Below are positions 41,303 through 60,447 of a stretch of DNA of 64,000 nt, piece by piece. The stretch spans positions 5,248,001 through 5,312,000 of the forward strand of contig OZ244587.1 of the NCBI GenBank assembly GCA_965218095.1, written 5' to 3'. Each line of letters starts with the position of its first letter. The first letter of the stretch is position 1. The notes beneath the pieces are model-generated. The model did no database searches, was not told where the DNA came from, and saw only the letters and a list, made by a program, of their open reading frames with translations. A program made the translations under genes and the position numbers. This stretch comes from Candidatus Poribacteria bacterium. GTDB lineage: Bacteria; Poribacteria; WGA-4E; PCPOR2b.

Positions 41303-41309
41303 TAGAATA

Positions 41310-44791: not shown

Positions 44792-45619
44792 TTAATCCGG
44801 CAGCCAAAGAAATGAGAGTACCTAGTTCATACGGGGTAGGCGGCGGGATTGCTCGATGACGGTCCGATCTGATTTGGTCGAACACCAGTGAGATAGCGGA
44901 ACTTCTTCCTGTTTTTCCTTGATCTCTTTGGATTTGCTGTTGGCAAGGAGGTATGCTATAGAGGCGGGATGGAATGGTTTGTTTTTGGCGAGATAACAGT
45001 CACTGTTTTGACGAAAGCCCTCTGAGTAAGCAAAATATTTAATCTGTCCCTTTTCAGAAAATACAATCGCACAGACATGTTGACTCAAGCGGATGTAGCG
45101 AATGGATGTGCTTGTCAGAGAGGTAGAATACCTGCCAGCAAGCGTGTCGATTGCTGGCAAACCGGCTTCAGGCAGATCGGCTGCATCTGCTTGAAAAATC
45201 GGATACGGCATCAGCAACTCAACCGCGAATTGATTGGCACGCTGTTCCTCCAATCGGTGCGAATCAAACCCACGCAGATCCTCGCGCTGGCAGCGATGCT
45301 GTACGGTTCGCCCCCCATCTAGGTGGTAGTGCCCTAACTCGTGAGCGATTGTAAAGTTCTTCCGGGACTGCGATTGAATCAGGCTGTTGAGCAAGATGCC
45401 CCAGGCGTCACCGACTCGCATCAGGCAGCCGTCGTACCGGCTTTCCATTTCACGTTCCCAAACAACGATCTGGAGTTGCGCCGCGATTTTTCGGGGTTGA
45501 ATCGGGATGGCCTGGGCGTTTAATTCCCGCAACAACTGTTGCGCTTGCTCTGCGGGCTCTGGAGCTAGCTTGGACATCTGTTTTGAAATTTGATGTTTTT
45601 GGGGAGGTGGCTGATTCAT
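44792..45619 (-). CDS. ImmA/IrrE-family metallopeptidase (last 9 codons possibly cut off by TAG at 44822)
   Basis: FTIAHELGHY (HExxH), E..AN.FA..LLMP, TSLT motifs; the frame continues VLSFLWLPD* after the TAG. Confidence 0.88.
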
Positions 45620-45621
45620 GC

Positions 45622-45978
45622 TCAGTCCGCAGATACTTCATTACTTTCCTGTTTCTTGTTCTTGTCTCTGAGAAATTCGTAGAATTCGAGCATCGTCTCC
45701 TTATCTTTTTCCGAGAGCTCCATGATGCCCCTGAACATAACACTGACCTTCGGATCCGCTAAAAGATCGTCGTAGCTCTGCTTCTTTTTACCAAGCAGAT
45801 AGTCTGTCGTCACTTTCAGCGCGTCGGCGAGACTCGAAAGTGTATCGAATGACGGTTTACGGGTGCCGGACTCAAACTGTGAGATGGCCGCAGGTGTTAG
45901 CGTCGCAGATTTGGCGAGTTGCGTCTGTGTCATCTTGAGATCATCCCGGCGTTTCTTAATGCGTGCTGCAACAGACAT
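45622..45978 (-). CDS. XRE-family HTH transcriptional regulator
   Basis: MTQTQLA...ISQFESG.RKPS...LADAL.VTTDYLLG; AGGAG RBS. Confidence 0.93.
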   Translation of the reverse strand: MSVAARIKKRRDDLKMTQTQLAKSATLTPAAISQFESGTRKPSFDTLSSLADALKVTTDYLLGKKKQSYDDLLADPKVSVMFRGIMELSEKDKETMLEFYEFLRDKNKKQESNEVSAD

Positions 45979-46071
45979 GATTGCATATCTCCTTTCGTAT
46001 GAGTTGGGTTAGGAAGTTAACGAAAACAAAAAGGGTAATCTTCAAAGAATTCCCTAACAATTGTAACATAC

Positions 46072-46227
46072 ATTTTAACACGTGCTTCAATTTAATGCAA
46101 GGTATTATGACAGAATTACAGAGATATTAACGCAAATTTAAAAAGGGGTTGCAATCCTACCCGACATTTACTTTTGTGAATTAGATCCGTTTTGCGCCTT
46201 GACAAGAATTCCTGACTATGATAGAAT
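46072..46227. promoter_or_regulatory. Divergent sigma70 promoters (xre leftward, giant gene rightward)
   Basis: Minus strand TTGCAT-17-TAAAAT (46100-46072); plus strand TTGACA-17-TAGAAT (46199-46227); both with TG extended -10. Confidence 0.7.
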
Positions 46228-46272
46228 CTGAAGAAAGTTCAATAAAATACACCTTTTCCCGGAGGGGGCATC

Positions 46273-49200
46273 ATGATTAAGAGGTATTCGTACATCGGTT
46301 TATGGCTTTGCTTGCTTATTCTATCGTCTACGTATGTCTGTCTTGCTGCCGACGATCAACTGTTAGTCAGTCTTTCGGAGACCGCTGTCAAAATTCATGA
46401 CGAAGTCGACATCGGCCGGATCCGAAAGGACATCGCTCGGCTATCCAATCTGTCTACCCGCGTTACTGGCTATTCCGAATCTGCCTCCGCTAGCAAATAC
46501 ATCTTTGATCGATTCGTCGAAATCGGATTACAAAATGTAGAAAGCCGCGAATTCCCAATCTCCGTCCCGATTGACCACGGTGACGGAAAGGTAGACCTCC
46601 TCTCCGAAGAGGGCACTGTTCTAAAGACTTACAAAATCTGGCCCCTCTGGCCCAACCTTGTCCGTACCTCCCTCCTGCCTGACGGCATTTCTCATCTTGT
46701 AGGTGAAGGAGAGACCCTTGAGGGAATTGCCAAATCCTACCAGGTGGACCCACAAGCCATTTTAGCTGACCCTCACAACCAATACCTCCGCGATCAAGTG
46801 ACCGACAGCCGGGATAACGATGGTGATGGTGAAATTGATGAACCGGGCGAGTTGGCGCTTGTCGAAGGCAATCCCGTCTTCATCCCCACCGGTGGATTGA
46901 CGGTTCCTCTCTTCTATGGAGGAAAAGGTGAACTCGCTGACTTTAACGGCAAAGATATCGGGGGATTTTGGTACAAAATTCAACCCGGTGATACGCTGGA
47001 GGACATTGCTCACCGTTTTCGCATCGGCGCCGGGAGCATCACCGATGACGTTCTTAATAGTCATCTCCAGAAGACTGAAGACGGCATTGACAACGACGAA
47101 GATGGACAAATCGATGAATACGGAGAGATCCCCCCGCTGACAGAAATCTTGTACTGGGATACCGACGGCATCGACAACGATAGGGATGACTTCGCAGATG
47201 AACAGCCCGGTGATAACACTGACGGCGTTGATAACAACAACGACGGTCAGATTGACGAAGATGGCGAATTTGTCGCCGCTTCCGAATCCAGCATTTTTAT
47301 TCCCCAGGGCAGCGTCGTTCTGATTGACTTCAACTCCAGCACCAAATGGATTAACGCCGCGATGCTTGGGGCGAAGGCGGTGATCTTCATTGAGCCGGAG
47401 ACCACGATTCGTGGGGAAGCCGAGAACAAATTCCTGACCGTCCCTGCCAACATTCCTCGCTTCTGGATTTCTAAGGCAGATGCTGACGAACTCCTCGCCA
47501 TGCTTGGGGAAGTTCCCCACCTGTCCCCTCCAACAGGGGAGGGAAAACAGGAGGGAGGTCTCTCCGTTCGTCTCACCTGCACTATCACCTGGGAACGGTG
47601 CATCGGGCAAAATATCCGTGGCTTTCTTGAAGGTGGCGATCCTGCTTTGAAAGATGAACTGGTCGTGATCACCGGCTACTACGACGCAATGTCTGTTGTT
47701 CCTGCGATGGCGCCTGGCGCTGATCCCACCGGCGGGATTGCCGCGCTTCTGGAACTTGGGCGCATCTTCAGCCAAGAGAAATTCCGTCCGGGTCGGTCCT
47801 TCCTCTTCGTTGCAACGGATGCCCACTTCCAGGGATTAGCCGGCATGCGTGCGTTTATGGAGGGGATTGGTCAGGATATTGTCGGACGAGAATCGGACTC
47901 TCCCGGCACCCCCACAATGCGTGGGCTACGGCGTGGCTTAAGCGCGGATCTTTTTGAATTTGAAGAACTTGGGCGGAAATTGCTCCTTTCTATCGATCGG
48001 AACGTGCTGGTTGACCTTCCCTCGGATTTCTTCTACGAAGTCCACCAGTTTGATGCGGATCTCGACTCCCTGATGACTACTCTCACTCACCTTGAGCAGA
48101 CGCGGGGAAAAATCGACGGGTTGCGCAACGCCCAGCGTGATGCGAAGGAGAAAGAAAAGAGAAAACTGGAAACGGCCAAGAAGCGGGAGAAGCAGGGGTT
48201 TACTGAGGAGGAGAAGTCCCGGCTCGAAGTCAACCTCGCGAAGTTCAAGAAGGACGTGCTTCAGACGGCCCAATTTCTCCGGTTGATGGTCCGCCGGATA
48301 ACGTGGATGCGCGCCCAGGCGTTGAATGAATCCCGAAAGGTGCAACATGAGTTGATTGAACAAATCGCTTTGCCGATGGCTCGTTTAGATGAATGGGCAA
48401 TCGGGCGATTGGAAGCGGATTTGGCAGCGCAGCAAATCGGCGGGAAGTATGATCAGACGCCGGACAGCAGCTATTTGAAGCCGGAGAAAGGAGCGGATGG
48501 GAGCTTTTATCTGCCGGTTCCTGGGAATGTGCCGCCAATCCTGAAAGCGGATGTCGAGATGCTGTCCAGGGCTTTGGAAGACTGGGAATTTAAGGATTCG
48601 CGGAAATTCACTCTCCAGTATGCTCAGGAGCGCCTGCTAGACCGTCACCTTGATTTTAATGGACTGGAACAGATGAAGCAAGCCCGCAAGGTGGTTCACC
48701 GTGCTACGAAAGACCTCTCGGAATACATCGCCGTTGAGCAGCAACTTCTCGAAAAAGTCCTCGCCCAGATTCCTACTGACAGTGGTGCAGAGACCCGCAT
48801 CAAAAACACCATCATGCAGTTAGAGGGGGACCCCGCTTCCGTCCCCAAGGACCTGATCGTTGAGCTGAAGCTTTTCCTCAACGAGCCAACCCTGAAGCGA
48901 TTCGAGGTCATTCAGAACCAGCTCCGCCAGAAATTGGCCATAATGGATGAAACAGGAACGGCGACTTCACGTGAGTTGGACGCTGTCCTGATTGCCGACC
49001 TCACCCGAGACAAACAGAACATACTCGAAATCGCCATGCGCAACGCCCGCCTTGAACGACAGCGGATCGAATTCCTGCTGGAACGTCACGATTCGCTGAT
49101 CCGCCCTTATCTCGCCGAGGAGACGCTTGTTCTACGCCACCACCTCCCTGACGATGTGGTTGATCTCGCGATGGAGGTCCGGGCCCAGATCTTTGCCCAC

Positions 49201-52200
49201 CTTGAAGAAGAGCGCCTGCTGAAGATGGTGAAGAAGCGAGCGAAGAATGATATTGTCGATCTCCAGAACCTGTTGAATGTCCTCAACCGTCTTGATCACG
49301 ATCTTGATGAGGACACCAAGATTCTCCTGCGTGATAACCTGCTTACGATGCGCAACGCCCGATTCCGTAATCTGCAGAAGCGCGTCGAAAAGATTGCACG
49401 CATCAGCGAACCGGAATACAATCGGAAGGTCCGGTCGATTGAACAAGCGATTGCGCTGCAAGACCTCTTCAACCGTTACTACACCTCCCTTTTTATTGCC
49501 ATTGACCTTTCCAGCCAGAGCGACAAATTCGGCGTTTTCAACAAAGGCTGGTTCTACAACCAACAGCCTGAATTTGTGTTACGTCGCGAGTTCGCTTCCA
49601 TCGGCAACAGGCTCATGGAGTATGCGAATCAAGCCGATTTCGGTGAGCGCATCGGGAAGCTGTGGACCTTTACTGATGACCAGATCCGACAGGCGGTGAT
49701 GAGCAGCCAATGGGAGGTCGGGTCCGATATTGAGTCGAAACGGATAATTGAAGGTAAGTCGTTGGAGACCCTGATCGCCGAACACTACGACACATTGGTT
49801 GGGCTCTCCGGTGTCTCTCGCCTGATGAAGATGCAGTTTGAACAGATGAAAAACCAGGGGGAACCCTCCGAAGATATGCTCAAGGATATGGACTATATCC
49901 GCAAAGAGGTGGAGCGATTTATCCGCAACGACATACGTGAAGCGCGAAAGAACCGCAAAAATAAGATTCGTCTCCTCAATCGGCTAGATGCCATGCTCGC
50001 CCTCCGCCACGAGGATGCATCCGCGTTGACCGAAGAAGAAGTCGAGGATATCAAGACGCTCATCGACATCGTGGGCCTGGGCGGCGAAACGAACTTCGTC
50101 AACGCCATCTCCGCCAGTGGTGGCAAAATTTGGAGGACATACATCCCCGGCAAGATTGCCTTCGACAGCGAAGTAGCAACCCTCACAGGTTTTACCGGCA
50201 TCGCCTTTGCCACGATCGACGATGCCCGAATCCTGACCGACACCCCGCTCGACACCATCAACCGAATGGATCTGCGAGAAGATGGCGCCCTGCATAAGCA
50301 GGTGAAAACCCTTGCTGCTGTCCTCATCCAAGCGATGCGTGATCCGAAGATGCCCACTACCGCTCGGGTTGGGAACTTCTACTGCAATCTCTTTGGCGAC
50401 GTGGTGGAGTACGATGCCCGCGAGAGCGCACTTCCGAACAAGCCGGTCCCTTACCCCGTCCTCACCCTGCGGCGAAAGCACAAAACCATGATGGGGGTCC
50501 GCGGCGACCTCTTTGCAATAGGGGACAACAAAGGGAATTTTGAGGTCGCGGGGCTCGCGATGGAAGGACGCGCCACGTACCGCATTGGTGGAAAACAGGA
50601 GGTGGAAGCGTACATCCTTGACCCTGATTCCGGCGATATTGTCTACGCGCCGGACCTCGGCAACTTCGGAGCTAAACTCTTGCCAAACCTGGTACCCATC
50701 AACACGCACCGTCGTGGATGTCGAATTGTAGTCTTCCCATGCGTGTCCACTACCATCTACGATCTTGTAGATCAGCGTTATCTGCGCACACTACGGGAGC
50801 TAGAGGTCTTCAATGCGGTCAGCGATAGTACGCCAGAAAAATATGGGATGTCAAAGCCGTGGCAGCAAGAAGGGATCTCTGCAACGGAGCCGCTTGCGCT
50901 GGTCTATTCCGAACCAAACACCCGAATCAAGATCGGCATGGCGTATGGACAGATAGGCAAACGGTTGCTGCTGATTAAGGCAGGCAAAAGTGGAACAAAG
51001 AATCCTACGCTCTATACCGGGGATGGCTTTGTAGTGCGGGAAAACGGAAGCATTCGTGTGACCCCTTACGTCGTCGTGCGCGATATGTGGTGGCTTGATG
51101 AAAACCGGAGTAGTCTTTACAAACGCTTCGGCATCAGCAGCGATCGCCTCGACCAACTTCACCAGTTTGCCAATGAACATCTGGATCAGGCAGAGATTGC
51201 CCTCACCCAAAAAGACTATCAGCAGGCGCTTAAGCTTGCCCGCGCCGCCTGGGGATACGAATCTCGCGCTTATCCCGATGTGAAAAAGACCGGCAATGAC
51301 GTGGTCAACGGTGTGATGTTCTACCTTGCCCTCCTGATACCCTTTGCCTACTTTATGGAACGGTTGCTGTTTGCCTTCCCCACCGTACACAAGCAGATTA
51401 TCGTGACCTTCGCAATCTTCCTCGTGGTGTTCTTCTTCCTTTCGCAGGTGCACCCCGCATTTCAGATTACCACAACGCCGATTATCATCCTGATTGCGTT
51501 CATTGTCCTCGCGTTGACGGCGCTCGTGATTAGCATCATTATCCGGAAGTTTGAAGAACAGGTAGAAAAAATCAAGCAGGAAAGCTCAAAGGTCTATAAG
51601 GCAGATGTTGGTCGCCTTTCCGCTTCCGCCGCTGCCTTCAGTTTGGGTGTCTCCAATATGCGTAAGCGGAAAGGGCGTACCATCCTCACCTGTACCACAC
51701 TGGTCATTCTGACCTTTACGGTGATCTCCTTTACGTCGGTGCGCACCTTTATGCACCCTAACAGTACCAACCTTCCGTCGGTGACGCCGCGCTATACCGG
51801 GATGCTCATCCGCGATCAGTATTGGAGTCCCCTTGAGGAGCCGGTCATCACCTCGATTCTAAATGACATGCGGAAAACGCAGATTCCTGAAAAGAACTTG
51901 CGGTTGCTGCTGAAAAAACAGAAATCTCCAGAGGAAGTTACATCCATCTTTGCCGACCTGCGGCGGCAGGGGGCGTTAATCAATCTTGGCGGTGAGTCCG
52001 TATTGCGAGTCTACAACGTCGTCGCGCCGCGGGCGTGGTATCAGTCCGCTGGCACAGGTAATCAGTCATTCGTGCAGTTGACACGTACCCCCAATTCGAT
52101 GGATGCCGCGCCGCCGGTCGAACTCGCAACCGGTCAGCCGAAAACCTACTCCGCCACTATGCTTGTCGGCATGACCCCGGATGAACCCGGCGTCACGGGG

Positions 52201-53661
52201 ATTGACCGCTACCTTCAGTACGGTAAGTGGTTTAATCCGGCCGATGAAGTGGAATGGCCAACACAGTGGCCCTACGCTTGCGTGCTGCCCAAGGGTATGG
52301 CAGATCTGCTCGGCATCACCGAGGAAGATATGGGCAAAGCGACCGTATCCGTGTACGGTGCGAATTTCACCGTCACCGGTGTCCTCGGTATTGGTTTCAA
52401 AGATCTGCACGATAACGATGGCGAGGAACTTACGCCCGTTGATTACCAACTGATGCAGCAGCAGGAAGCGCGAGGTGGTGGACAACAGGGGAATCAACCC
52501 GTCGAAGGGGAGTTGGAGAAGTACATTCATCTTCCCCCTGATAGTGTTGCTATCCTGCCGTATAATGTGGTGATGAATCAGGGCGGGACGTTGCGCTCGG
52601 TCGCTGTCAACATGGAGCCACCGCCCGGCGATCCGGCGATCCCGCGCGCCGCCGATAGGCTTGACCTGATCATGGGACCGCTTATGAGCCGAATTGCGCT
52701 CGACTTCTTCGTCGGCAAGGATCGCGATACCTATCTCTACAGCTCAATCGGGATGACCTCTTTCTCCGGAATGGGGAACCTGTTTGTGCCGATCCTGATC
52801 GCGGCGCTGATTGTGCTAAACACGATGCTCGGTGCGGTCTATGAGAGAGTCCGAGAAATCAGCATCTATAGTTCTGTGGGACTTGCTCCTGTGCATATTG
52901 CTTTTCTTTTCCTTGCGGAGGCATGCGTGTACGCAATTATTGGTGCGGTGCTCGGCTACCTGCTCGGTCAGGCCGTTGCCACTATCCTGGTCAAATTCGC
53001 CTTTCTCGCTGGACTGACCCTCAACTACTCATCGATGTCAACAGTGGTAGCAACTATTATTGTAATGATTGTTGTTATCGGAAGTACGCTCTACCCCGCG
53101 ATTAAAGCAAGTCGAATGGCAGTCCCCGACATTGAGCGGAAATGGAAATTACCGGAACCTGATGGCGATGAATGGCACTTCGATCTCCCCTTCACTGTGC
53201 TGGTGGAAGAAGCACTCGGCTTGAATATTTTCATGCGGGATTACTTTGAAGCGCACGCCGACGAATCTGCAAGCGACTTCTATACGGACCAGGTTGCCTT
53301 TGGTCGGACCCCCGTGGCAATCGAAGGGAGAGAGGATGAGGCCTACAATATCGGCATGATGGTTTGGCTCGCCCCGTATGACCTCGGGGTCAGTCAATCC
53401 ATTCGGCTTGTGACCTCACCGGTCGGTGGAGAAGAGGAAGAACTCTACAAGATTAACCTTGATGTCCATCGAGAGAGTGGAGAGATCGCCTCGTGGAAGC
53501 GCGTCAACCGTCGCTTCTTGAACCTTGTCCGAAAGCAATTGCTGATTTGGCGGACGTTTAGCGCCGATGTCCGTGGTGAATTCCATGAACGTGGGCGGCA
53601 AGAGAGTGAAGCAGAAGCCGCGCCGAGCGTTGGCGGTTTGGCGCCCCAGCCAGCAGATTGA
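46273..53661 (+). CDS. Giant exported membrane protein: degenerate M28/PA domain + 2 LysM + Asp-rich repeats + helical insert + MacB/FtsX permease
   Basis: Signal peptide; LysM motifs (VGEGETLEGIA, IQPGDTLEDIA); DGxDNDxDGxIDE repeats; GYYD..APGAD..GIAALLE; SNMRKRKGRTILT; VYERVREISIYSSVG. Confidence 0.85.
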   Translation: MIKRYSYIGLWLCLLILSSTYVCLAADDQLLVSLSETAVKIHDEVDIGRIRKDIARLSNLSTRVTGYSESASASKYIFDRFVEIGLQNVESREFPISVPIDHGDGKVDLLSEEGTVLKTYKIWPLWPNLVRTSLLPDGISHLVGEGETLEGIAKSYQVDPQAILADPHNQYLRDQVTDSRDNDGDGEIDEPGELALVEGNPVFIPTGGLTVPLFYGGKGELADFNGKDIGGFWYKIQPGDTLEDIAHRFRIGAGSITDDVLNSHLQKTEDGIDNDEDGQIDEYGEIPPLTEILYWDTDGIDNDRDDFADEQPGDNTDGVDNNNDGQIDEDGEFVAASESSIFIPQGSVVLIDFNSSTKWINAAMLGAKAVIFIEPETTIRGEAENKFLTVPANIPRFWISKADADELLAMLGEVPHLSPPTGEGKQEGGLSVRLTCTITWERCIGQNIRGFLEGGDPALKDELVVITGYYDAMSVVPAMAPGADPTGGIAALLELGRIFSQEKFRPGRSFLFVATDAHFQGLAGMRAFMEGIGQDIVGRESDSPGTPTMRGLRRGLSADLFEFEELGRKLLLSIDRNVLVDLPSDFFYEVHQFDADLDSLMTTLTHLEQTRGKIDGLRNAQRDAKEKEKRKLETAKKREKQGFTEEEKSRLEVNLAKFKKDVLQTAQFLRLMVRRITWMRAQALNESRKVQHELIEQIALPMARLDEWAIGRLEADLAAQQIGGKYDQTPDSSYLKPEKGADGSFYLPVPGNVPPILKADVEMLSRALEDWEFKDSRKFTLQYAQERLLDRHLDFNGLEQMKQARKVVHRATKDLSEYIAVEQQLLEKVLAQIPTDSGAETRIKNTIMQLEGDPASVPKDLIVELKLFLNEPTLKRFEVIQNQLRQKLAIMDETGTATSRELDAVLIADLTRDKQNILEIAMRNARLERQRIEFLLERHDSLIRPYLAEETLVLRHHLPDDVVDLAMEVRAQIFAHLEEERLLKMVKKRAKNDIVDLQNLLNVLNRLDHDLDEDTKILLRDNLLTMRNARFRNLQKRVEKIARISEPEYNRKVRSIEQAIALQDLFNRYYTSLFIAIDLSSQSDKFGVFNKGWFYNQQPEFVLRREFASIGNRLMEYANQADFGERIGKLWTFTDDQIRQAVMSSQWEVGSDIESKRIIEGKSLETLIAEHYDTLVGLSGVSRLMKMQFEQMKNQGEPSEDMLKDMDYIRKEVERFIRNDIREARKNRKNKIRLLNRLDAMLALRHEDASALTEEEVEDIKTLIDIVGLGGETNFVNAISASGGKIWRTYIPGKIAFDSEVATLTGFTGIAFATIDDARILTDTPLDTINRMDLREDGALHKQVKTLAAVLIQAMRDPKMPTTARVGNFYCNLFGDVVEYDARESALPNKPVPYPVLTLRRKHKTMMGVRGDLFAIGDNKGNFEVAGLAMEGRATYRIGGKQEVEAYILDPDSGDIVYAPDLGNFGAKLLPNLVPINTHRRGCRIVVFPCVSTTIYDLVDQRYLRTLRELEVFNAVSDSTPEKYGMSKPWQQEGISATEPLALVYSEPNTRIKIGMAYGQIGKRLLLIKAGKSGTKNPTLYTGDGFVVRENGSIRVTPYVVVRDMWWLDENRSSLYKRFGISSDRLDQLHQFANEHLDQAEIALTQKDYQQALKLARAAWGYESRAYPDVKKTGNDVVNGVMFYLALLIPFAYFMERLLFAFPTVHKQIIVTFAIFLVVFFFLSQVHPAFQITTTPIIILIAFIVLALTALVISIIIRKFEEQVEKIKQESSKVYKADVGRLSASAAAFSLGVSNMRKRKGRTILTCTTLVILTFTVISFTSVRTFMHPNSTNLPSVTPRYTGMLIRDQYWSPLEEPVITSILNDMRKTQIPEKNLRLLLKKQKSPEEVTSIFADLRRQGALINLGGESVLRVYNVVAPRAWYQSAGTGNQSFVQLTRTPNSMDAAPPVELATGQPKTYSATMLVGMTPDEPGVTGIDRYLQYGKWFNPADEVEWPTQWPYACVLPKGMADLLGITEEDMGKATVSVYGANFTVTGVLGIGFKDLHDNDGEELTPVDYQLMQQQEARGGGQQGNQPVEGELEKYIHLPPDSVAILPYNVVMNQGGTLRSVAVNMEPPPGDPAIPRAADRLDLIMGPLMSRIALDFFVGKDRDTYLYSSIGMTSFSGMGNLFVPILIAALIVLNTMLGAVYERVREISIYSSVGLAPVHIAFLFLAEACVYAIIGAVLGYLLGQAVATILVKFAFLAGLTLNYSSMSTVVATIIVMIVVIGSTLYPAIKASRMAVPDIERKWKLPEPDGDEWHFDLPFTVLVEEALGLNIFMRDYFEAHADESASDFYTDQVAFGRTPVAIEGREDEAYNIGMMVWLAPYDLGVSQSIRLVTSPVGGEEEELYKINLDVHRESGEIASWKRVNRRFLNLVRKQLLIWRTFSADVRGEFHERGRQESEAEAAPSVGGLAPQPAD

Positions 53662-53749
53662 AACGTAATGGAGATGTACTCATCATTACAGTTACCCTTA
53701 TTCCCTTGCTCAACCATATCCTATCAAATCCGGTCTTTGCTCAAGAAAG

Positions 53750-54143
53750 AGAGAAGGTTGTTTGGGTCCTAGTGGCTTCGATGTTTCTGATTACCTCGGG
53801 ATGCGGCGAACCTGAGGAACCTATCGGGGAGGATGACGTCAAGCCAAAGCCCGTTACGAATTTCCTATTTATGAACCACCAGATGGTAGTTTCGTTGTCA
53901 ACATACCTGCTGCATGCGGTCGTGAAGCTGTGTATCCCACGGTAGAACTGTTTTTTGACCGGACACCCGCCTCTATTCGCGTGAACGGTACTTCTGTTGA
54001 GGCGGGGGTTTGGAAGGCGATAGGGGCAAAACCCGCCGAAAGGCAAGGAACTGGTCAATGGAACAACCTACTAGGGGATGTTCAAAGATGCCGAAGGAAA
54101 TAAATGGGAGATCAAATTTACATTTACGACCAAAAATGATTAG
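53750..54143 (+). pseudogene. Probable frameshifted lipoprotein remnant
   Basis: Hydrophobic stretch plus ITSGC lipobox-like motif; plausible coding sequence continues in another frame after ~53870. Confidence 0.35.
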
Positions 54144-54154
54144 GAGAAAACAAA

Positions 54155-54322
54155 ATGGAGAAATTGGCATACGGTTTAATCTTTATCGGTGCGGTGCTTT
54201 GGGGCTTTTCGATTCTTTTTATGGAAGGGCGATGGCAGCCACAAATACTAGCTGCAGTTATTCTAGCCGTTGGAATCTTGGTTGCTCACATTTGGGAGGA
54301 AAGCTTCCGGGCAAAAAAATAA
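54155..54322 (+). CDS. 55-aa two-TM microprotein (below the ORF-track cutoff)
   Basis: AGGAG at 54142-54146; MEKLAYGLIFIGAVLWGFSILFMEGRWQPQILAAVILAVGILVAHIWEESFRAKK. Confidence 0.65.
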   Translation: MEKLAYGLIFIGAVLWGFSILFMEGRWQPQILAAVILAVGILVAHIWEESFRAKK

Positions 54323-54392
54323 GTGAATCGGCAAATAGGCGAAACAAGATTCGTGAATTCGTTGTTCGCAGATTCTTGAAAGGAGAACAGGT

Positions 54393-56387
54393 TTGGCAAG
54401 AGAGAGAGTGTCGCAGGCAGAAGAGTGGCAAGCTTGGGCGCAGCGGTATGATATTGATGGTGGGATTCGGACCTTTGAATCTGGCTTAACCCTTAAAGTC
54501 TTTTTAGGCGCCCTTTTTGTCGGGCTATTGATGATGCCAGGTTCAATTTATCTGACTTTAGTGTCCGGTCAATCGGGTGCAGGCGCCGCCCCCTGGGTAG
54601 CGGTCATCCTGTTTACGGAATTGGCACGCCGATCCTTTACCACAGCGAGACGGCAAGAGCTTTACATGTTGCTCGGGCTCACCGGCGCCGCGGTCGGTTC
54701 TGGGGATCAATATCGGGGCTTCATCTGGAACGCCTTCTTTATTCAGACACAGCAGGCGGAATCGTATGAAATTGCAGACAAAATACCCTTTTGGATTGCG
54801 CCCTCGCAGGATTCGATTGCGCTTGCAGAGAGATTGCTTTTACATATGGACTGGTTTTGGCCGATCGTGATCTTTCTGATCATGAAACTGCTTGGAACGA
54901 TCCGAAGTATTAGTGCAGGATATTTTCTGTTCCGTCTCACGGCGGATTTGGAGCGCCTTCCTTACCCGCTGGCGCCCATTCAAGCTCAAGGCGCAACTGC
55001 CTTAGCGGAGACCACCGGTCGGGCAGAAACGTGGCGTTGGCGTGTGTTTTCCGTTGGGTCAATGGTAGGCCTGTTCTGGGGATTTCTCTATATCGGTATT
55101 CCCTCCCTCACCGGGGTGATGATGTCACAACCGATTCAGATTCTGAAAATTCCATTTATCGATTTTACACCGAGCATTGAAGGGTTCGCCCCGACGGGTG
55201 TGTTTGCGCTATCGACCGACTTCGGACAAATGCTTATAGGTTTCGTCCTGCCGTTCCCTGTCATCATGACTGAGTTTGCTGCGGCGCTCTTTACCCAGTT
55301 TATTCTGAACCCACAAATCCTTTATCCCACTGAGATCTTACATCAGTGGCGTGCCGGCTTGGATGTGCGTGGGGTTGGATTGTTTAATGGCCTTGATTTC
55401 TGGATTAGCTTCGGGATGGGGAAGGCCTTTAGCTTTGCTGTTGTCGGCCTAGCGGCTTCCATTCCGATGGTGCTGGTGCAGATGCGAAAAGGAAGACAGT
55501 CTGGCACGAGTGCACGCGGTTCACTGCGGCCTCCCCCAGGGCGTGGAGATTTTCCACTTTGGCTGATGGGAGGGCTATGGATACTTGGCATGGGAGTTTT
55601 TGTGTGGCTCGTGCATTGGATGGTGCCGAACTTCCCGCTGGCATTCCTGGTCGGCTTTGCCTTCGTGTATACCCCCCTTCATTCCTACATCAATGCTAGA
55701 ACTTTTGGTGTTTTAGGGAGGCCTCTCTTTGACATCCCCTATATCCACGAAACCACGTTTATTTTAAGTCGCTATGAGGAGATCGACATCTGGTTTGCTC
55801 CGCTGCCTGATGAAGACTACGGCGCTGGTACGCAGCATTGGCGAGTGCTTGAACTGACCGGCACAACCTTCACCAGTAATATTGCCGCGCATCTGATAAT
55901 GATGCCGATTCTGCTCATTTCTGGAATCATCGTTTGGCATTTCATCTGGAAAATAGCGCCAATTCCTTCTTCTCAATATCCGTTTGCACAAACGTGGTGG
56001 CCAATCTACGCGACCAACGAATGTCTCTGGAAAACCTCACTTCGCGATGGAAACAGCCAAATGCTACAAGCCATTCGTGGTGATTACGTGGCGGCTGGCT
56101 TCACCTCTTCGCTGGCAATCTACGGTTTGCTTTGGGTGGCTAAGATGCCAAGCATGTGGTTCTATGGCCTCGTTGGTGGGATTGGCGCCGACCCAGGGAT
56201 GATGATTCCACGAGTTTTGGGTGCAGCCATCGGTAGGTTTTACATGATCAAGCGATTTGGTCTGAAACGATGGTTCATGTTTAATCCTGTCCTGGCAGCA
56301 GGCTTTACTTGTGGCGTTGGACTGGTTGGTATGGGGACTGTTGCGATTGCGCTGGTTTCCAAAGCTGTGATTGTCAAACCTTTTTGA
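54393..56387 (+). CDS. OPT/YSL-like polytopic peptide transporter
   Basis: TTG start with AAGGAG RBS; many TM helices; E.L.YP.AP..A motif reminiscent of the OPT family. Confidence 0.7.
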   Translation: MARERVSQAEEWQAWAQRYDIDGGIRTFESGLTLKVFLGALFVGLLMMPGSIYLTLVSGQSGAGAAPWVAVILFTELARRSFTTARRQELYMLLGLTGAAVGSGDQYRGFIWNAFFIQTQQAESYEIADKIPFWIAPSQDSIALAERLLLHMDWFWPIVIFLIMKLLGTIRSISAGYFLFRLTADLERLPYPLAPIQAQGATALAETTGRAETWRWRVFSVGSMVGLFWGFLYIGIPSLTGVMMSQPIQILKIPFIDFTPSIEGFAPTGVFALSTDFGQMLIGFVLPFPVIMTEFAAALFTQFILNPQILYPTEILHQWRAGLDVRGVGLFNGLDFWISFGMGKAFSFAVVGLAASIPMVLVQMRKGRQSGTSARGSLRPPPGRGDFPLWLMGGLWILGMGVFVWLVHWMVPNFPLAFLVGFAFVYTPLHSYINARTFGVLGRPLFDIPYIHETTFILSRYEEIDIWFAPLPDEDYGAGTQHWRVLELTGTTFTSNIAAHLIMMPILLISGIIVWHFIWKIAPIPSSQYPFAQTWWPIYATNECLWKTSLRDGNSQMLQAIRGDYVAAGFTSSLAIYGLLWVAKMPSMWFYGLVGGIGADPGMMIPRVLGAAIGRFYMIKRFGLKRWFMFNPVLAAGFTCGVGLVGMGTVAIALVSKAVIVKPF

Positions 56388-56521
56388 AGATAAGTTCACG
56401 AGTTCAGGAGTTTATTGGTTCAAGATGAGTTTATTCGTTTAGAGATCTATCAAAATCTGACAGTCAAACCCATGACCCATCAACCAATGAACTACTGAAC
56501 CAATGAACTCATAGACCTATC

Positions 56522-57451
56522 ATGGAATGGACAACCTTAGGATGGAGTGGCATTACCCTCAAAACCCCTGCGGACTGGGAACTGAGTGGATTATCCGGTG
56601 ACGATAAAAGTGGGTACTTGCGCCTGGATGATGCGGAGATGCCGCGCCTGGAGTTAAAGTGGTCTGAGTCAAAGAAGAAGAAGCCAGACCTCCAGCGTGT
56701 CCTCGATGAATATTTTAAGCTCGTTCGCAAAAATTACAAACGTAAAGAGGCACACCTTCACATTCAGCGCAATGTCAATCTTATCAAAGATGAGGGGTTC
56801 TTCGAGGGGCGAGAGGTCGTTTTCTTCAGTTGGAAGGGGGAGTATCGGGCAGGCGGCGTCATCTTCCACTGCCACACCTGCAGGCGAATCACAATTGTGC
56901 AGGTGATGGGACATCTCAAGGAGAATCTCCGCGCAAAAACAACCCGCATCCTAGGTTCCATTCAAGATCACCCAACAGGGCAGACAACGCCGTGGAGCGC
57001 CTACCAACTCAATGCAGAAATCCCGCGACGGTACCGTCTCGACAAGCATCAACTGTTGTCCGGCTACCTGCTTTTTTCATTTGTAGATGGAAGTCGTAAG
57101 GTCAGCATTGAGCGGTATGGGGTGGCAGACGTTGTGCTAAAGGAACATGACCTTGAGTCCTGGTTCCGAGCAAAATACGCCAAAGCTATTCGCGGGTACG
57201 GTTTCTCAATTGAAACTAGCCGGGACAATGTAGACGAACGATTAACGCTGATCGGTGGGCAAACCCGCATTATAGATCATATCCCCATGGCTCCCGTCCT
57301 GATTATTGATAAGGTGATGCGCCGCAAAACCTTCGCCGTTTACCTGTGGCGATGCCATCGCTCAAATCGAATTTACGTTGTTCAAGCTATCGCCAAACGC
57401 GATGCAGCCAAGACCGCTGAGGAGATTGCGGCGAGCATTCGGTGTCATTAA
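56522..57451 (+). CDS. Hypothetical soluble protein (309 aa)
   Basis: Long ORF in the operon; two similar-looking halves, each ending in a Cys motif (HCHTCRR, RCHRSNR). Confidence 0.75.
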   Translation: MEWTTLGWSGITLKTPADWELSGLSGDDKSGYLRLDDAEMPRLELKWSESKKKKPDLQRVLDEYFKLVRKNYKRKEAHLHIQRNVNLIKDEGFFEGREVVFFSWKGEYRAGGVIFHCHTCRRITIVQVMGHLKENLRAKTTRILGSIQDHPTGQTTPWSAYQLNAEIPRRYRLDKHQLLSGYLLFSFVDGSRKVSIERYGVADVVLKEHDLESWFRAKYAKAIRGYGFSIETSRDNVDERLTLIGGQTRIIDHIPMAPVLIIDKVMRRKTFAVYLWRCHRSNRIYVVQAIAKRDAAKTAEEIAASIRCH

Positions 57452-57465
57452 AACAGGAACACACG

Positions 57466-57505
57466 AATACAGGATACAGGATACAGGATACAGGATACAA
57501 GATGC
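57466..57505 (+). repeat. Tandem heptamer array (GATACAG)n
   Basis: ATACAGGATACAGGATACAGGATACAGGATACAAGATGCAG; a partial inverted copy follows at ~57566-57577. Confidence 0.8.
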
Positions 57506-57646
57506 AGATTGCTTGCATCGCGATTTATCGGGGTTATCCCGATCTTTGGATAGGGGCTCAACTTGAATCTTGCATCTGACGGGAATTGGTGTTAATTTCC
57601 ATTTGTCCCCTTTATATATTTTACGCAATACGCATCGCGTTTTACC

Positions 57647-58066
57647 ATGATCAACCCAATACTTTACAAGCTCAGACTCAAAAAACGTCCAGATTCCGAA
57701 TTTGAGCGGGCGGATATTTTAAAATCATTACCGCTCCACAACGAGTTAATCGAATGGGAAGTCGATGATAAGGAGGAAGTTTCGCTGGTTATTCCTCAGA
57801 AGGAGACACTGTGGATACGGCTGGTTGCAAAGCTTTTTATGTTGCCCGGCAAGCGTGTGGTTGTCTTAGACGATGTTGGGTCTTATGTGTGGCAATTGTG
57901 TGATGGGCATAATTCCATCGGCCAGATTATCAAACACCTTTGTGGGAAATACCGTATGACGAGAAAAGAGGCAGAGACATCGCTGTTCACCTTTATGCGT
58001 CAGTTGGGTAAGCGGGGCATGGTCGGCTTTGCGGTTCCCCAAAAAACGAAGAAAGGAAAAAAGTAA
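57647..58066 (+). CDS. PqqD/RRE-family peptide-binding protein
   Basis: LDDVGSYVWQLCDG..SIGQII..L...Y......E......F...L...G pattern. Confidence 0.85.
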   Translation: MINPILYKLRLKKRPDSEFERADILKSLPLHNELIEWEVDDKEEVSLVIPQKETLWIRLVAKLFMLPGKRVVVLDDVGSYVWQLCDGHNSIGQIIKHLCGKYRMTRKEAETSLFTFMRQLGKRGMVGFAVPQKTKKGKK

Positions 58067-58897
58067 ATGGCAGAACTTGAGCAAGCGATAGATCCGGAAG
58101 CAATACCTGTGGATGGTGTTGTTCCAACCGAAACCCCCGAACGATTGAAGAGAGACCTACCGAAGGAAAATACGGTACGCGTAAGAAACCTGATTAAAAA
58201 ATATGAAATGGGCTCTAGCGTTGTTGAGGCGTTACGAGGCGTCAATTTTGAAATTCGCCGAGGAGAGTACATCTCGATTATGGGACCATCCGGCTCCGGT
58301 AAATCGACGCTGTTCAACATGATAGGCGGCCTGGACAAGCCAACGGAGGGCAGAGTCTACATTGATGAGGTAGATATTGCACAGTTAGATGCGTATGAAT
58401 TGGCGTGGCTGCGCTGCCGTAAGATTGGCTACATTTTCCAGGCATTCAACCTGATTCCAGTGATGACAGCCCTCGAAAATGTCTCTCTGCCCATGATCTT
58501 TGCCGGTATGACGGCTGATGATAGCCGCGAAAAAGCTGTTGATTTGTTAACCCTTGTCGGGTTAGGAGAGCGCGTGCGACATAAACCGCTTGAACTCTCC
58601 GGCGGTCAGCAACAGCGCGTCGCTGTTGCGCGTTCGCTTGCAAATAATCCGGCGATTGTGCTTGCAGATGAACCGACGGGAAACTTGGATACAAAGACTG
58701 GGCTTGAGATCATCGACCTCCTGAAAAGTTTGAATGAGGAAAATGGAGTGACGATTATTACCGCCACACACGACACAAAAATGCTCGATGTGTCGGATCG
58801 AATCTTCTACATGGGGGATGGTAGGGTCGATAAAATTGAGACACGCGAGGAAATTGATTTGCAGGTCGGTAGGCTTGACGGTGAGGAAGTGGGATAG
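58067..58897 (+). CDS. ABC ATPase, LolD/MacB type
   Basis: GPSGSGKST, IGYIFQAFNL, LSGGQQQR, LADEPTGNLD. Confidence 0.94.
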   Translation: MAELEQAIDPEAIPVDGVVPTETPERLKRDLPKENTVRVRNLIKKYEMGSSVVEALRGVNFEIRRGEYISIMGPSGSGKSTLFNMIGGLDKPTEGRVYIDEVDIAQLDAYELAWLRCRKIGYIFQAFNLIPVMTALENVSLPMIFAGMTADDSREKAVDLLTLVGLGERVRHKPLELSGGQQQRVAVARSLANNPAIVLADEPTGNLDTKTGLEIIDLLKSLNEENGVTIITATHDTKMLDVSDRIFYMGDGRVDKIETREEIDLQVGRLDGEEVG

Positions 58898-59151
58898 AAT
58901 TGAAGTGTTGGTCAAAGGAAAAGATGGCAAAATGCCGTCTTTTTCGGGTGTTATGTAATGGTCAATAGGATAATCGACACGTTTGCTTGGTAAATCCAAG
59001 CCGCAAATTGTAGGGATAATGTCTACCATCTTCCTGACCACCTACCTGACGAGTTTGGTTATCATGCTCAACTTTGGACAGAGCATGTCTACATTCCTTA
59101 CCAAGAGAGGCTCGGCAGCGAAGCCTAGGGAGATGAAAGAGGCTTTCAACG

Positions 59152-59436
59152 ATGGCAGAAGTTTTTATGAAGATAAAAGTTGAGATGCTGGAAGAAGGAG
59201 GCTACTTGGCAGCCAGCAATGAGTTGCAAGGGTTGGTCGCGTATAGGCGCACGGTGGCGGAAACGCTGGAGATAGCACAAGATGTAGCACGAAAACTCAT
59301 TGAATCGTGCATAGAACATGGGAATTCGCTTCCTCCGAGTGTGCTAAGTGTGCAGCAGGATGCTTCGCCGCGCCGCCACTGTCAGACAACGGTGAAAGTC
59401 CCGGTGGCCATCGAACTAAAGGAAGCAGCTGTATAA
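59152..59436 (+). CDS. HicB-family antitoxin (orphan)
   Basis: EEGGYLA...LQG.VA...TV.E....A.D......IE......P pattern; no HicA seen nearby. Confidence 0.75.
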   Translation: MAEVFMKIKVEMLEEGGYLAASNELQGLVAYRRTVAETLEIAQDVARKLIESCIEHGNSLPPSVLSVQQDASPRRHCQTTVKVPVAIELKEAAV

Positions 59437-59451
59437 GCCGCTTGGCCATCC

Positions 59452-60447
59452 TCAATAAGTTTCCTTGAGCAGTCGCTTTCTATCCCGAACCCTTTCAATC
59501 TTTGTCCACTCTGGCGCATCCCGAGGCAGCCGCTGGATGTCCTCCACGGTCAGACCTTCTGGAAGGTTGACGAGGTTAGATCCAATCCGATAAAGCCACG
59601 GATAGATACCGTACTCCATGCCTTTCAGCCCACACATATAAAATAGGGTATCCGGCTTCTCAAGAAGGGGCACAAGCGTATCCTGATGCTCTTCGAGACG
59701 GTCTTGCACATACAGCTTGTCCCCACGAGCATTGAGTTGTTCCCGACTAATCGCAGTGACGTAATGAAAATTCGGATGGCGCTCTGCGAAATAAAGAAAT
59801 TCCTCATTGTACATAATGTCCGTTGAATACGGCACGCCAAAGACCAGCCAGACTTCCCGTTCAAAGCCCTGATTCAATAGCTCAACAAGCATCCCAACAA
59901 ACGGAGCAATCCCTGTCCCTGTTGCTACGAACACGTAATCGCGATCTAGTGGGGCATCTGGCAGCAGGAAGCTCTTGCCTACTGGTCCCGTGATAAGCAT
60001 CTCATCACTGGGCTTTGCATCACAAATGTAATTTGAAGTTGCACCGAAAACCAATTTACCTGTTTCTTCATCCTCTTTGACTTCCCGCTTGACGCACAGA
60101 GAAACAGTCGTTCCCGCCCAGTCATCGCCCCAACAGGCAGAAGTAATCGAATAGAGGCGAATTTTATCGTTCAGCGCTTCGTGAACATAATTGAGTTCTG
60201 GGTCATTGAAACGTCCTTCCGGTACAACGCCAATGCTCTGACCAATACGATACTTGCCTGCCATTTTGCTCCCCTTCAGACTGAGGACGACGTGCCAACT
60301 GTAATTGGGGCTAGAACGATCCGTAATACGATACTTACTCAAAACCTCTGCCGGAAAGGGGTTCTTTGGTGTGTAAATATTCACCGCTGTTTCTGGAATT
60401 GGCATGAGCAGTAAATCAGCAGGCTTTTCTAAAAAAGACGTTATCAA
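59452..60447 (-). CDS. Ferredoxin-NADP(+) reductase, plant/cyanobacterial type
   Basis: RLYSI, SLCVKR, GATSNY, ATGTGIAP, YVQD, YMCGLKGM, C-terminal ETY. Confidence 0.9.
   Translation of the reverse strand: MITSFLEKPADLLLMPIPETAVNIYTPKNPFPAEVLSKYRITDRSSPNYSWHVVLSLKGSKMAGKYRIGQSIGVVPEGRFNDPELNYVHEALNDKIRLYSITSACWGDDWAGTTVSLCVKREVKEDEETGKLVFGATSNYICDAKPSDEMLITGPVGKSFLLPDAPLDRDYVFVATGTGIAPFVGMLVELLNQGFEREVWLVFGVPYSTDIMYNEEFLYFAERHPNFHYVTAISREQLNARGDKLYVQDRLEEHQDTLVPLLEKPDTLFYMCGLKGMEYGIYPWLYRIGSNLVNLPEGLTVEDIQRLPRDAPEWTKIERVRDRKRLLKETY

Follow-up and report, generated by a model that had tools for sequence, protein, structure and literature searches.

A conserved gene cluster of Poribacteria that combines a type VII ABC motor, a giant peptidase-like head and a predicted OPT-fold permease

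We describe a cluster of co-oriented genes in a 64,000-nucleotide (nt) stretch of the genome of a Candidatus Poribacteria bacterium (GenBank assembly GCA_965218095.1, contig OZ244587.1), which we call the window. The genome is 6.35 Mb long and in a single contig, and positions are window coordinates unless they are marked G000:C1. The cluster spans 46273-58897, and its open reading frames (ORFs), all on the + strand, encode a giant membrane subunit, a microprotein of 55 amino acids (aa), a 664-aa permease, a 309-aa protein, a PqqD-like protein and an ATPase. We are highly confident that they belong to a real, functionally linked and so far undescribed system in which a type VII ATP-binding cassette (ABC) transporter of the MacB/FtsX type goes together with a permease of predicted OPT fold.

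46273-53661, + strand: giant subunit, 2462 aa (Pfam, PDB sequence matches, hydropathy, conservation map)
54155-54322, + strand: 55-aa microprotein with two predicted membrane helices (conservation in Poribacteria loci; aggag upstream)
54393-56387, + strand: permease of predicted OPT/Yellow-Stripe fold, 664 aa (model and Foldseek; a homologue over the Pfam OPT cut-off)
56522-57451, + strand: protein of predicted tandem PsbP/Mog1p fold, 309 aa, predicted to be cytoplasmic (model, fold comparison, hhalign)
57647-58066, + strand: PqqD/RRE-like winged-helix protein, 139 aa (PF05402, PDB matches)
58067-58897, + strand: MacB/LolD-type ABC ATPase, 276 aa (Pfam, NCBIfam, tree)

These ORFs lie where a first-pass annotation, made from the letters alone, had placed them, and Pfam and NCBIfam confirm its labels for the giant, the PqqD-like protein and the ATPase. 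It had also pointed out that the stop codon of the PqqD-like gene directly abuts the start codon of the ATPase gene, as the sequence aagTAAATGgca bears out. Its parts list has the five main genes right but misses a small FtsX protein with a second ATPase, as well as a DUF6785/DUF6784 protein that is linked to the cluster in other phyla.

Gene order is conserved across phyla

The order giant, 664-aa gene, 309-aa gene, PqqD, ATPase is identical across 80 Poribacteria loci from GTDB. The giant and the 309-aa gene are each found in 79 of them, PqqD in 77 and the ATPase in 75, and each miss falls at a contig end. The flanks of these loci vary, and an FNR-like gene next to the cluster occurs only in close kin. 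The second sample consists of 80 metagenome loci, selected for likeness to an Armatimonadota homologue; the assignment to Armatimonadota comes from source names. The giant is directly upstream of the permease in 66 of the 71 metagenome loci with at least 600 nt of upstream sequence, and in a 67th (L162) the two overlap by 76 nt. Where at least 5 kb of downstream sequence is available (33 loci), the 309-aa gene, a small FtsX gene and the ATPase are present in 24/33 and PqqD in 23/33. In L136 and L137 the cytoplasmic pair (the 309-aa and PqqD-like genes) and the ATPase sit as a block on the opposite side of the giant, and L137 has a row of seven genes that includes DUF6785. Protein identity between the phyla is 26-46%, and 61-74% for the ATPase. 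Because the order is kept in both the Poribacteria and the metagenome loci while the flanks vary, we conclude that the linkage of these genes is real and extends across at least two bacterial phyla. The first-pass annotation had staked its proposal on co-occurrence in other genomes, and the genes are indeed kept together in the 80 Poribacteria loci, as far as each contig extends, and largely so in the metagenome loci.

An alternative is that the ABC unit, the permease and the two small proteins work separately and that their order merely reflects common descent. Kin do share gene order by descent, 9 of the 33 metagenome loci have only the giant-permease pair, and in Poribacteria the small FtsX and the second ATPase have moved away from the cluster without apparent harm. 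Against this, the order is kept between phyla at the low identities given above while the flanks differ in each lineage, the cytoplasmic pair and the ATPase moved as a block in L136 and L137, start and stop codons abut or overlap (the 309-aa and PqqD-like genes frequently do overlap), and the predicted complex of the PqqD-like and 309-aa proteins, described below, passes our mark. We consider unrelated neighbours very improbable.

Some features of the loci vary within lineages. In 8 of 75 Poribacteria loci (L033, L041, L055, L061, L063, L068, L070 and L078), the ATPase lies 1.9-5.5 kb behind the PqqD start instead of the usual ~0.45-0.6 kb, which suggests insertions between the two genes. A gene with a SPOR domain follows the ATPase in 15 of the 30 metagenome loci with at least 800 nt of downstream sequence. 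All 15 belong to one sub-lineage (L106-L134, L161), in which the cluster is followed by the SPOR-domain gene, grpE and ftsZ. In L168 a gene with 3D/G5 domains is found just upstream of the permease. L099 has a 221-aa ORF behind its ATPase that shows no conservation, and no precursor peptide or other small ORF conserved across phyla was found in the cluster loci.

The giant subunit carries a remodelled peptidase-like head

By hydropathy, the giant starts with a signal or anchor segment (8-26), followed by an extracytoplasmic head of ~1650 aa, three helices at 1677-1755 and a short cytoplasmic linker. Then comes a module of the MacB/FtsX type with a first transmembrane helix (TM1) at 1803-1821, a periplasmic domain of ~350 aa, FtsX helices at 2172-2282 and a cytoplasmic tail at 2283-2462. 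The Pfam family FtsX (PF02687) matches aa 2172-2282 with 48.1 bits against a cut-off of 25.5, and MacB_PCD (PF12704) matches aa 1939-2041 with 26.3 bits, just below its cut-off of 27; homologues of the giant reach 27.9 (L152) and 40.9 bits (L137). In the head, Pfam finds a PA domain (344-407), Peptidase_M28 (447-530; 25.8 bits, covering profile positions 1-78 of 193 only) and LysM (PF01476; 33.1 bits) in two stretches. The PDB sequence matches of the giant are MacB, YtrF, LolC and LolF, together with the aminopeptidases 2ek8 and YwaD; for the C-terminal domain and for region 1250-1676 there is no PDB sequence match. The parts of the giant, in window coordinates, are as follows.

46720-47307, + strand: head insert specific to Poribacteria (aa ~150-345), in which LysM matches twice alongside Asp-rich repeats; 0-14% of 45 giants from outside Poribacteria cover it
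47302-47862, + strand: PA domain (aa 344-407), followed by the N-terminal half of the M28-like domain (aa 447-530), from Pfam and the PDB alignment
47920-50022, + strand: Poribacteria-specific insert of ~700 aa inside the M28-like domain (aa ~550-1250), rich in E/K/R/L, absent from most non-Poribacteria giants
52087-53118, + strand: match, just below cut-off, to the MacB periplasmic core (aa 1939-2041) and FtsX helices (aa 2172-2282), from Pfam and PDB
53119-53658, + strand: cytoplasmic C-terminal domain (aa 2283-2462), 45-50% identical to non-Poribacteria giants

Outside both inserts, the conservation map shows the giant, including its cytoplasmic tail, to be common to the 45 non-Poribacteria giants. 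The glycan-binding modules inserted in the head differ by lineage. The one in the window is LysM, and L137 has an F5/8 type C domain at the position of the second insert. The head had been described as wall-anchored; this description has the LysM of the Poribacteria giant in its favor, and the restriction of LysM to the Poribacteria version against it.

The M28-like part of the head can be aligned with 2ek8 and YwaD over ~200-320 residues, a comparison of metal ligands that covers the N-terminal part of the domain and in which the two C-terminal ligands are not alignable. The HxD motif of the aminopeptidases is replaced by YYD, and the catalytic Glu-Glu by His-Phe. The giant thus lacks the complete ligand set of M28 metallopeptidases, namely the His/Asp/Glu/Asp/His zinc ligands and the catalytic Glu. 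The residues at the remodelled site are Y469, D471, D484, H518 and F519. Among 120 relatives, the position of the His ligand is a Tyr in 115, that of the catalytic Glu is a His in all 120, and that of the Glu ligand is a Phe in 108; the Asp at position 471 is found in 118, and an acidic residue at the bridging Asp in 117. Because the replacement residues are themselves conserved across the 120 relatives, we read the metal site, by sequence comparison, as one that selection maintains in remodelled form and not as a decaying one. The head has the look of a non-catalytic receptor, in line with the M28-like receptor that the first-pass annotation had proposed.

An ABC motor with a second, detached pair of subunits

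The cluster ATPase matches ABC_tran with 120.5 bits and LolD (TIGR02211) with 233.7 bits, below the equivalog cut-off of 307.75. Its best NCBIfam models are LolD, YbbA, DevA and MacB. Together, the giant and the cluster ATPase form the motor, an ABC unit of type VII (MacB/FtsX type).

Outside Poribacteria, an FtsX protein of 203-214 aa without a periplasmic domain is encoded between the PqqD and ATPase genes. In the genome studied here, its orthologue (51% identity) is located 545 kb from the cluster and is followed by a second ATPase, which we call ATPase2. Of 41 Poribacteria genomes, 40 carry a single copy of this pair, and the two genes are adjacent in 10/10 loci examined. ATPase2 is the closest paralogue of the cluster ATPase, with 62-64% identity (the next one has 51%). 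A tree places the cluster ATPases of both phyla together with ATPase2 in a single clade (93/93), separate from five further MacB/LolD-like ATPases that the genome encodes; long outgroup branches leave any finer placement unsure. The small FtsX subunit (about 220 aa, without a periplasmic domain) very probably also belongs to the motor. The genome further encodes a separate canonical full-length FtsX (G000:C1:2505692-2506528, 162.9 bits) and, elsewhere, a LolC/E-like gene (262.3 bits).

A motor of this kind could act like FtsEX with EnvC, as a controller of wall remodelling. The motor would switch its own dead peptidase-like head, the head would activate or position a separate wall hydrolase, and the permease would recycle the released peptides or be a structural partner. 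EnvC, which works together with FtsEX, is an activator that resembles a degenerate peptidase, and the head here is a remodelled M28. The LysM of the Poribacteria giants, the SPOR gene with GrpE and FtsZ after it in 15 of 30 loci of one sub-lineage and the 3D/G5 gene of L168 point the same way, and the core of the cluster is single-copy and strongly conserved. On the other hand, the genome has the separate canonical FtsX and LolC/E-like genes just mentioned, no hydrolase gene is conserved in the cluster, and the wall-binding modules are lineage-specific. The remodelled site also keeps conserved Asp, acidic and His residues, which suggests ligand or metal binding of its own. We think this account unlikely.

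The permease and the 55-aa microprotein

The 664-aa protein is not recognized by any family in a scan of Pfam and NCBIfam; against Pfam OPT (PF03169) it scores 16.7 bits, with a cut-off of 25.8. An AlphaFold2 model built from 56 sequences has a predicted local distance difference test (pLDDT) of 84.0 and a predicted template-modelling score (pTM) of 0.83. Foldseek relates this model only to the barley Yellow Stripe 1 transporter HvYS1 (7wst_A), with E 1.6e-9, probability 1.00 and template-modelling scores of 0.60/0.65 over 689 columns; further Foldseek hits are unrelated, with scores of ~0.1. One of 12 scanned relatives (P0070) does pass Pfam OPT, with 32 bits and a colinear match of 142-634 to profile positions 102-620. 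Four other relatives that carry a precomputed OPT tag have no Pfam OPT hit at E <= 0.1, and PDB sequences gave no hit to a profile built from the permease family. NCBI labels some of the relatives 'peptide transporter'. The model thus assigns the 664-aa protein an OPT/Yellow-Stripe fold, and the OPT-like label given to it from the letters is upheld by the match to HvYS1 and by the homologue P0070.

Of 41 related Poribacteria genomes, 39 have a match to the 664-aa protein; its identity across the order is 75-87%, compared to 35-77% for alanine racemase in the same genomes. In other families of the order the values are 75-86% for the permease and 35-54% for alanine racemase, and in one of them (f3) 84-86% and 35-39%. 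At the sequence level, the permease appears to be under very strong constraint. Because the permease is more conserved than alanine racemase and the system is near-universal in Poribacteria, it is likely to have a core role in the envelope or in nutrition, both in sponge symbionts and in Armatimonadota-like bacteria from other metagenomes. In one genus (g4, among relatives G003-G024), the 664-aa gene is tandem-duplicated in 15 of 16 genomes, for example at G017:C1:4140932-4145105, and both copies are 81-85% identical to the window protein.

A microprotein had been placed between the giant and the permease. There is a conserved one, but it is not the 95-aa ORF first picked. Of 80 Poribacteria loci, 76 have the 55-aa ORF, in every case immediately upstream of the 664-aa gene; it was not found in the four deepest Poribacteria loci nor in the 80 metagenome loci. 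From its conservation and sequence, we take it to be a genuine two-helix microprotein limited to crown Poribacteria. The 95-aa ORF has a match in 0/80 Poribacteria loci and lies in unconserved DNA; it is probably not a gene.

53658-53945, + strand: 95-aa ORF, no conservation

Between the giant stop and the 55-aa gene lie 494 nt (53662-54154) in which relatives share neither an ORF nor conserved DNA and Rfam has no match. In the inspected non-Poribacteria loci, the spacing between giant and permease is ~20-100 nt.

A predicted cytoplasmic complex of two small proteins

The 309-aa protein has no Pfam family match, and its family profile gave only zinc-ribbon-like noise (E 0.5) against PDB sequences. 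The model has a pLDDT of 90.9. Its residues 1-150 superpose on the cyanobacterial PsbP 2xb3_A (Z 14.7, root-mean-square deviation (rmsd) 2.9, 138 residues aligned), and residues 155-309 on Apa 5zxa_A (Z 11.3, rmsd 3.7, 129 residues aligned); Foldseek lists PsbP matches at E ~1e-4. An internal duplication is also found by hhalign (probability 93%, E 3e-7). In the model, then, both halves have the PsbP/Mog1p fold, which is typical of binding and accessory proteins and not of enzymes, and we describe the protein, as modelled, as a tandem-fold adaptor, not an enzyme. Its conserved residues C117, C120, D149-H150, C278 and C308-H309 suggest metal binding. The conserved Cys, Asp and His had raised the possibility of a Cys-His-Asp protease like lasso B2, an idea we dropped after the fold search. 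With no signal peptide or helix predicted by hydropathy, it is predicted to be cytoplasmic. At E <= 0.001, the family counts 1927 representatives.

The PqqD-like protein matches PF05402 with 46.9 bits (cut-off 23.4), and TbiB1 (E 8.4e-4) and PqqD (E 2.5e-3) in the PDB; the PqqD-type models of NCBIfam are all below cut-off. Its predicted complex with the 309-aa protein has an ipSAE interface score of 0.70 (the median of runs with 0.74, 0.57 and 0.70), and the best of 3 controls has 0.00. The runs have at least 97% of contacts in common, and partner pLDDT is at least 73. The ipSAE mark is reached by 58 of 80 solved complexes and by 2 of 110 mismatched pairs, a calibration that is only rough for the alignments used here. 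On the PqqD side, the predicted interface involves residues 75-77 and 102-115, including a conserved T-R-x-E-A-E-x-S motif, and on the 309-aa side the cleft between the two halves, including R34, D36, G200 and N282. We know of no solved complex of the PqqD-PsbP type, so model memory is an unlikely source of the pass. The two proteins are thus predicted to form a complex. The 'hypothetical' member of the first-pass annotation remains a conserved member of the cluster, now as a protein of predicted tandem PsbP/Mog1p fold; its predicted binding to the PqqD-like protein points to an adaptor or regulator pair and away from delivery in the manner of RiPPs (peptides made on the ribosome and modified after translation).

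The PqqD-like protein also invites a second alternative, in which the system exports a peptide. A RiPP recognition element (RRE) would bind a ribosomal peptide in the cytoplasm, the OPT-fold protein would pass it across the membrane and the MacB-type motor would expel it from the periplasm. In essence this is the outward direction of the first-pass annotation, whose route leads from recognition by the RRE through the OPT-like subunit to the M28-like receptor. PqqD/RRE domains bind RiPP leader peptides, pumps of the MacB type expel peptides such as the enterotoxin STII, and the PqqD match is clear. Other findings count against it. No modifying enzyme adjoins the RRE among the cluster genes or the window neighbors, as had been stated from the letters, and no cross-phylum precursor gene was found; the 55-aa ORF is a predicted membrane protein of crown Poribacteria only. 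The predicted partner of the RRE has a non-enzymatic fold, the cluster has no MacA-like or TolC-like gene, and known OPT proteins import. A near-universal single copy at 75-87% identity is also unlike a specialized-metabolite cluster. We regard export as quite improbable. A RiPP cluster proper was rejected on similar grounds: no adjacent modifying enzyme, no shared precursor, and an adaptor fold in the predicted partner of the RRE.

A linked family of DUF6785/DUF6784 membrane proteins

In 7 of the 80 metagenome loci, a membrane protein of ~650 aa with DUF6785 and DUF6784 is encoded inside or beside the cluster. The genome studied here has 13 copies of this family (three with in-frame stops), for example G000:C1:1320438-1322345 (see also L205-L215), while in relatives the matches to a single genome can number 30 or more. 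In this genome the copies are mostly beside catabolic enzymes: DAO, xylose-isomerase-like, GFO/IDH/MocA and PhyH (four loci). Further neighbors are BNR (sialidase-like), FGE-sulfatase (sulfatase-maturing), hydantoinase B, a beta-eliminating lyase and M24. These catabolic surroundings fit an uptake role for the family. A comparison of the permease family with DUF6785 by hhalign found no similarity. The sole hint in that direction is that DUF6785 matches Pfam OPT at E 0.06, and we do not count it as OPT-like.

Expression signals and flanking genes

The genes had been said to lie behind a consensus promoter.

46199-46227, + strand: promoter-like site TTGACA-17 nt-TAGAAT, with TG before the -10, matching the consensus at 11/12 positions

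The site lies 46 nt upstream of the giant start, and GGAGG is found 6 nt before the ATG at 46273. The consensus match is present and is the best-scoring of 12 promoter-like sites in 45500-59600, a number no higher than in shuffled sequence (12.3 +/- 3.8), so we call it a putative promoter only. A scan of 45500-59600 with Rfam found nothing at E <= 0.1. Sponge RNA libraries also yield contigs of the cluster: those from four metatranscriptome runs, all of one study, match it at 95% identity or more and fill 23-28 of 30 bins. Some of them run across the giant stop, the boundary from the 55-aa to the 664-aa gene, and the 3' end of the 664-aa gene. Stretches that no contig covered were not taken as evidence.

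Directly upstream of the cluster, and divergent from it, is a pair of genes at 44822-45978 (- strand) that encode an HTH_3 protein (118 aa) and a Peptidase_M78/IrrE-like protein (265 aa). Many Poribacteria loci, though not all, also have the HTH gene 5' of the giant. The pair may be an operon regulator or a toxin-antitoxin-like pair. The downstream flank in the window has an FNR-like reductase on the opposite strand and an F5/8-type-C protein; ORF 59152-59436 has no match among 80 related loci. At 40481-41287 there is a transposase of IS4/IS5 type (DUF4096 and DDE_Tnp_1, 268 aa). The small-FtsX-ATPase2 pair has a similar copy (L181:1665-2471) at a distance of 3.8 kb, and two DUF6785 loci have DDE fragments next to them. 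Just after the transposase, a gene for an N6/N4 DNA methylase stands beside an ORF without known family (42020-42826 and 41244-42017), and the two may be a small mobile restriction-modification remnant.

A proposed mechanism

What we say about function beyond folds and linkage, we infer. MacB and FtsX proteins work by mechanotransmission, in which ATP hydrolysis moves the periplasmic domain. By analogy with MacB, LolCDE and FtsEX, hydrolysis in the present system would move the periplasmic domain and the head of the giant. The head would bind or free a peptide-containing ligand outside the membrane, and the ligand would then go to the OPT-fold permease for import. In the cytoplasm, the PqqD/PsbP-like pair would serve the motor as an adaptor or feedback regulator, and not as a chaperone of RiPP leader peptides. 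We favor this reading, in which ATP drives the capture of a peptide-like ligand of the envelope or from outside and import follows, because the periplasmic domain that such modules move is here joined to a huge, putatively ligand-binding head, and because an OPT-fold permease, of a family whose studied members are importers, is genetically locked to the unit; we hold it as a tentative proposal, somewhat short of an even chance. The leading candidate for the substrate is a peptide or glycopeptide derived from the cell wall, because of the LysM in the head, the SPOR gene in 15/30 loci and the 3D/G5 neighbor in L168. These hints are tied to particular lineages, and kin do not count as independent.

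Several points weigh against capture and import. Gene adjacency is the sole tie between motor and permease, while substrate and direction are both deduced, and a search for fusions of permease and giant, weak evidence according to the tool, found none. The characterized systems of the MacB type expel or extract substrates and do not feed importers. Nine of the 33 metagenome loci with enough downstream sequence are without the cytoplasmic pair and the ATPase nearby, and the small-FtsX-ATPase2 pair could be an independent transporter. With LysM only in Poribacteria and SPOR in one sub-lineage, the link to the wall may be a lineage-specific decoration. The PqqD-like/309-aa complex is a prediction, whose score is a measure of model confidence, and its interface residues are only mildly enriched for conservation (42% vs 29% and 48% vs 36%). 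Finally, the RNA-library contigs cannot prove transcription or a single transcript, as DNA carry-over is possible.

A more specific version of capture and import is a hybrid of primary and secondary transport. In this hybrid, the ATP-driven giant head would be a powered receptor that loads one or more OPT-fold permeases, namely the single-copy 664-aa protein and possibly the many DUF6785 paralogues too, and the PqqD/PsbP-like pair would report the imported ligand to the ATPase. We find it doubtful, if worth stating: if true, it would be a new uptake route for oligomeric nutrients, or for the recycling of wall peptides, in bacteria of several phyla.

A full-text search of the literature, with results seen at the level of listings and abstracts, returned no description of this composition or of DUF6785, in agreement with the earlier statement that no characterized system is built this way. 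Type VII ABC systems are known for lipoprotein release, control of wall hydrolases and toxin efflux, and a pairing with an OPT importer would widen the view of both families. The conserved pseudo-peptidase head and an RRE-type domain outside any RiPP pathway would broaden the roles of those families as well. Two large families, the 309-aa family and DUF6785/DUF6784, obtain their first functional contexts, in carriers (sponge symbionts and Armatimonadota-like metagenome bacteria) that are hard to study.

Comparison with known systems

The motor shares with type VII ABC systems (MacAB-TolC, LolCDE, FtsEX-EnvC, YtrEF) the four-helix FtsX module and an ATPase of the LolD/MacB type, and probably the periplasmic domain between TM1 and TM2. 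The probable hetero-pair of permease subunits, giant and small FtsX, resembles LolC/LolE. Unlike those systems, the giant has a 1650-aa head, three extra helices before the module and a conserved cytoplasmic tail of 180 aa. The partner FtsX subunit is without a periplasmic domain, and the cluster is always paired with an OPT-fold permease and usually with the PqqD/PsbP-like pair. With respect to MacAB-TolC, no membrane-fusion or outer-membrane-factor domain occurs among the cluster genes and their neighbors in the window, L099 and L137 (the rest of the genome was not searched), and we rejected a MacAB-TolC pump for the absence of such genes from the clusters examined. With respect to FtsEX, the giant scores 16.4 bits against 255 for TIGR00439, and a canonical FtsX is encoded elsewhere. 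With respect to LolCDE, it scores 29.8 bits against 473 for LolC and 13.9 against 362.45 for TIGR02212, and there is a LolC/E-like gene elsewhere. We therefore discarded the possibility that the cluster is the cell's own FtsEX or LolCDE, as both are encoded elsewhere and the equivalog scores are far below cut-off.

The 664-aa protein resembles the OPT/YSL transporters (PF03169; HvYS1 7wst, 7wsr) in a fold match of the whole chain. It differs in being only 14% identical to HvYS1 and below the Pfam cut-off. The OPT/YSL proteins that have been studied are importers of oligopeptides or metal chelates and stand-alone secondary transporters; we know of no characterized OPT protein encoded with an ABC motor.

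As in the RRE/PqqD chaperones (PqqD-PqqE, lasso B1-B2), a small PqqD-fold protein is encoded beside its predicted binding partner. Here the partner has a predicted tandem PsbP/Mog1p fold and no enzyme fold. Unlike RiPP clusters, this one has no radical S-adenosylmethionine enzyme, protease, cyclase or precursor peptide.

The head of the giant is like the PA-bearing M28 aminopeptidases (YwaD 6hc6, Aneurinibacillus 2ek8) in that a PA domain is inserted in the M28 scaffold. Nicastrin and the transferrin receptor are pseudo-peptidase receptors that have lost their catalytic residues, and the giant head has lost its own in the same way. Unlike in these M28 relatives, the replacement residues show conservation of their own (Tyr, Asp, Asp/Glu, His, Phe), and lineage-specific inserts interrupt the domain, which is also fused to a permease. 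Finally, the 309-aa protein has in both halves the predicted fold of the PsbP/Mog1p proteins (PsbP, Mog1, DcrB, LpqN, TplEi), of which TplEi, an immunity protein of the type VI secretion system, also has two domains. What sets it apart from them is its predicted cytoplasmic location, its conserved Cys and His residues and its pairing with a PqqD-like protein.

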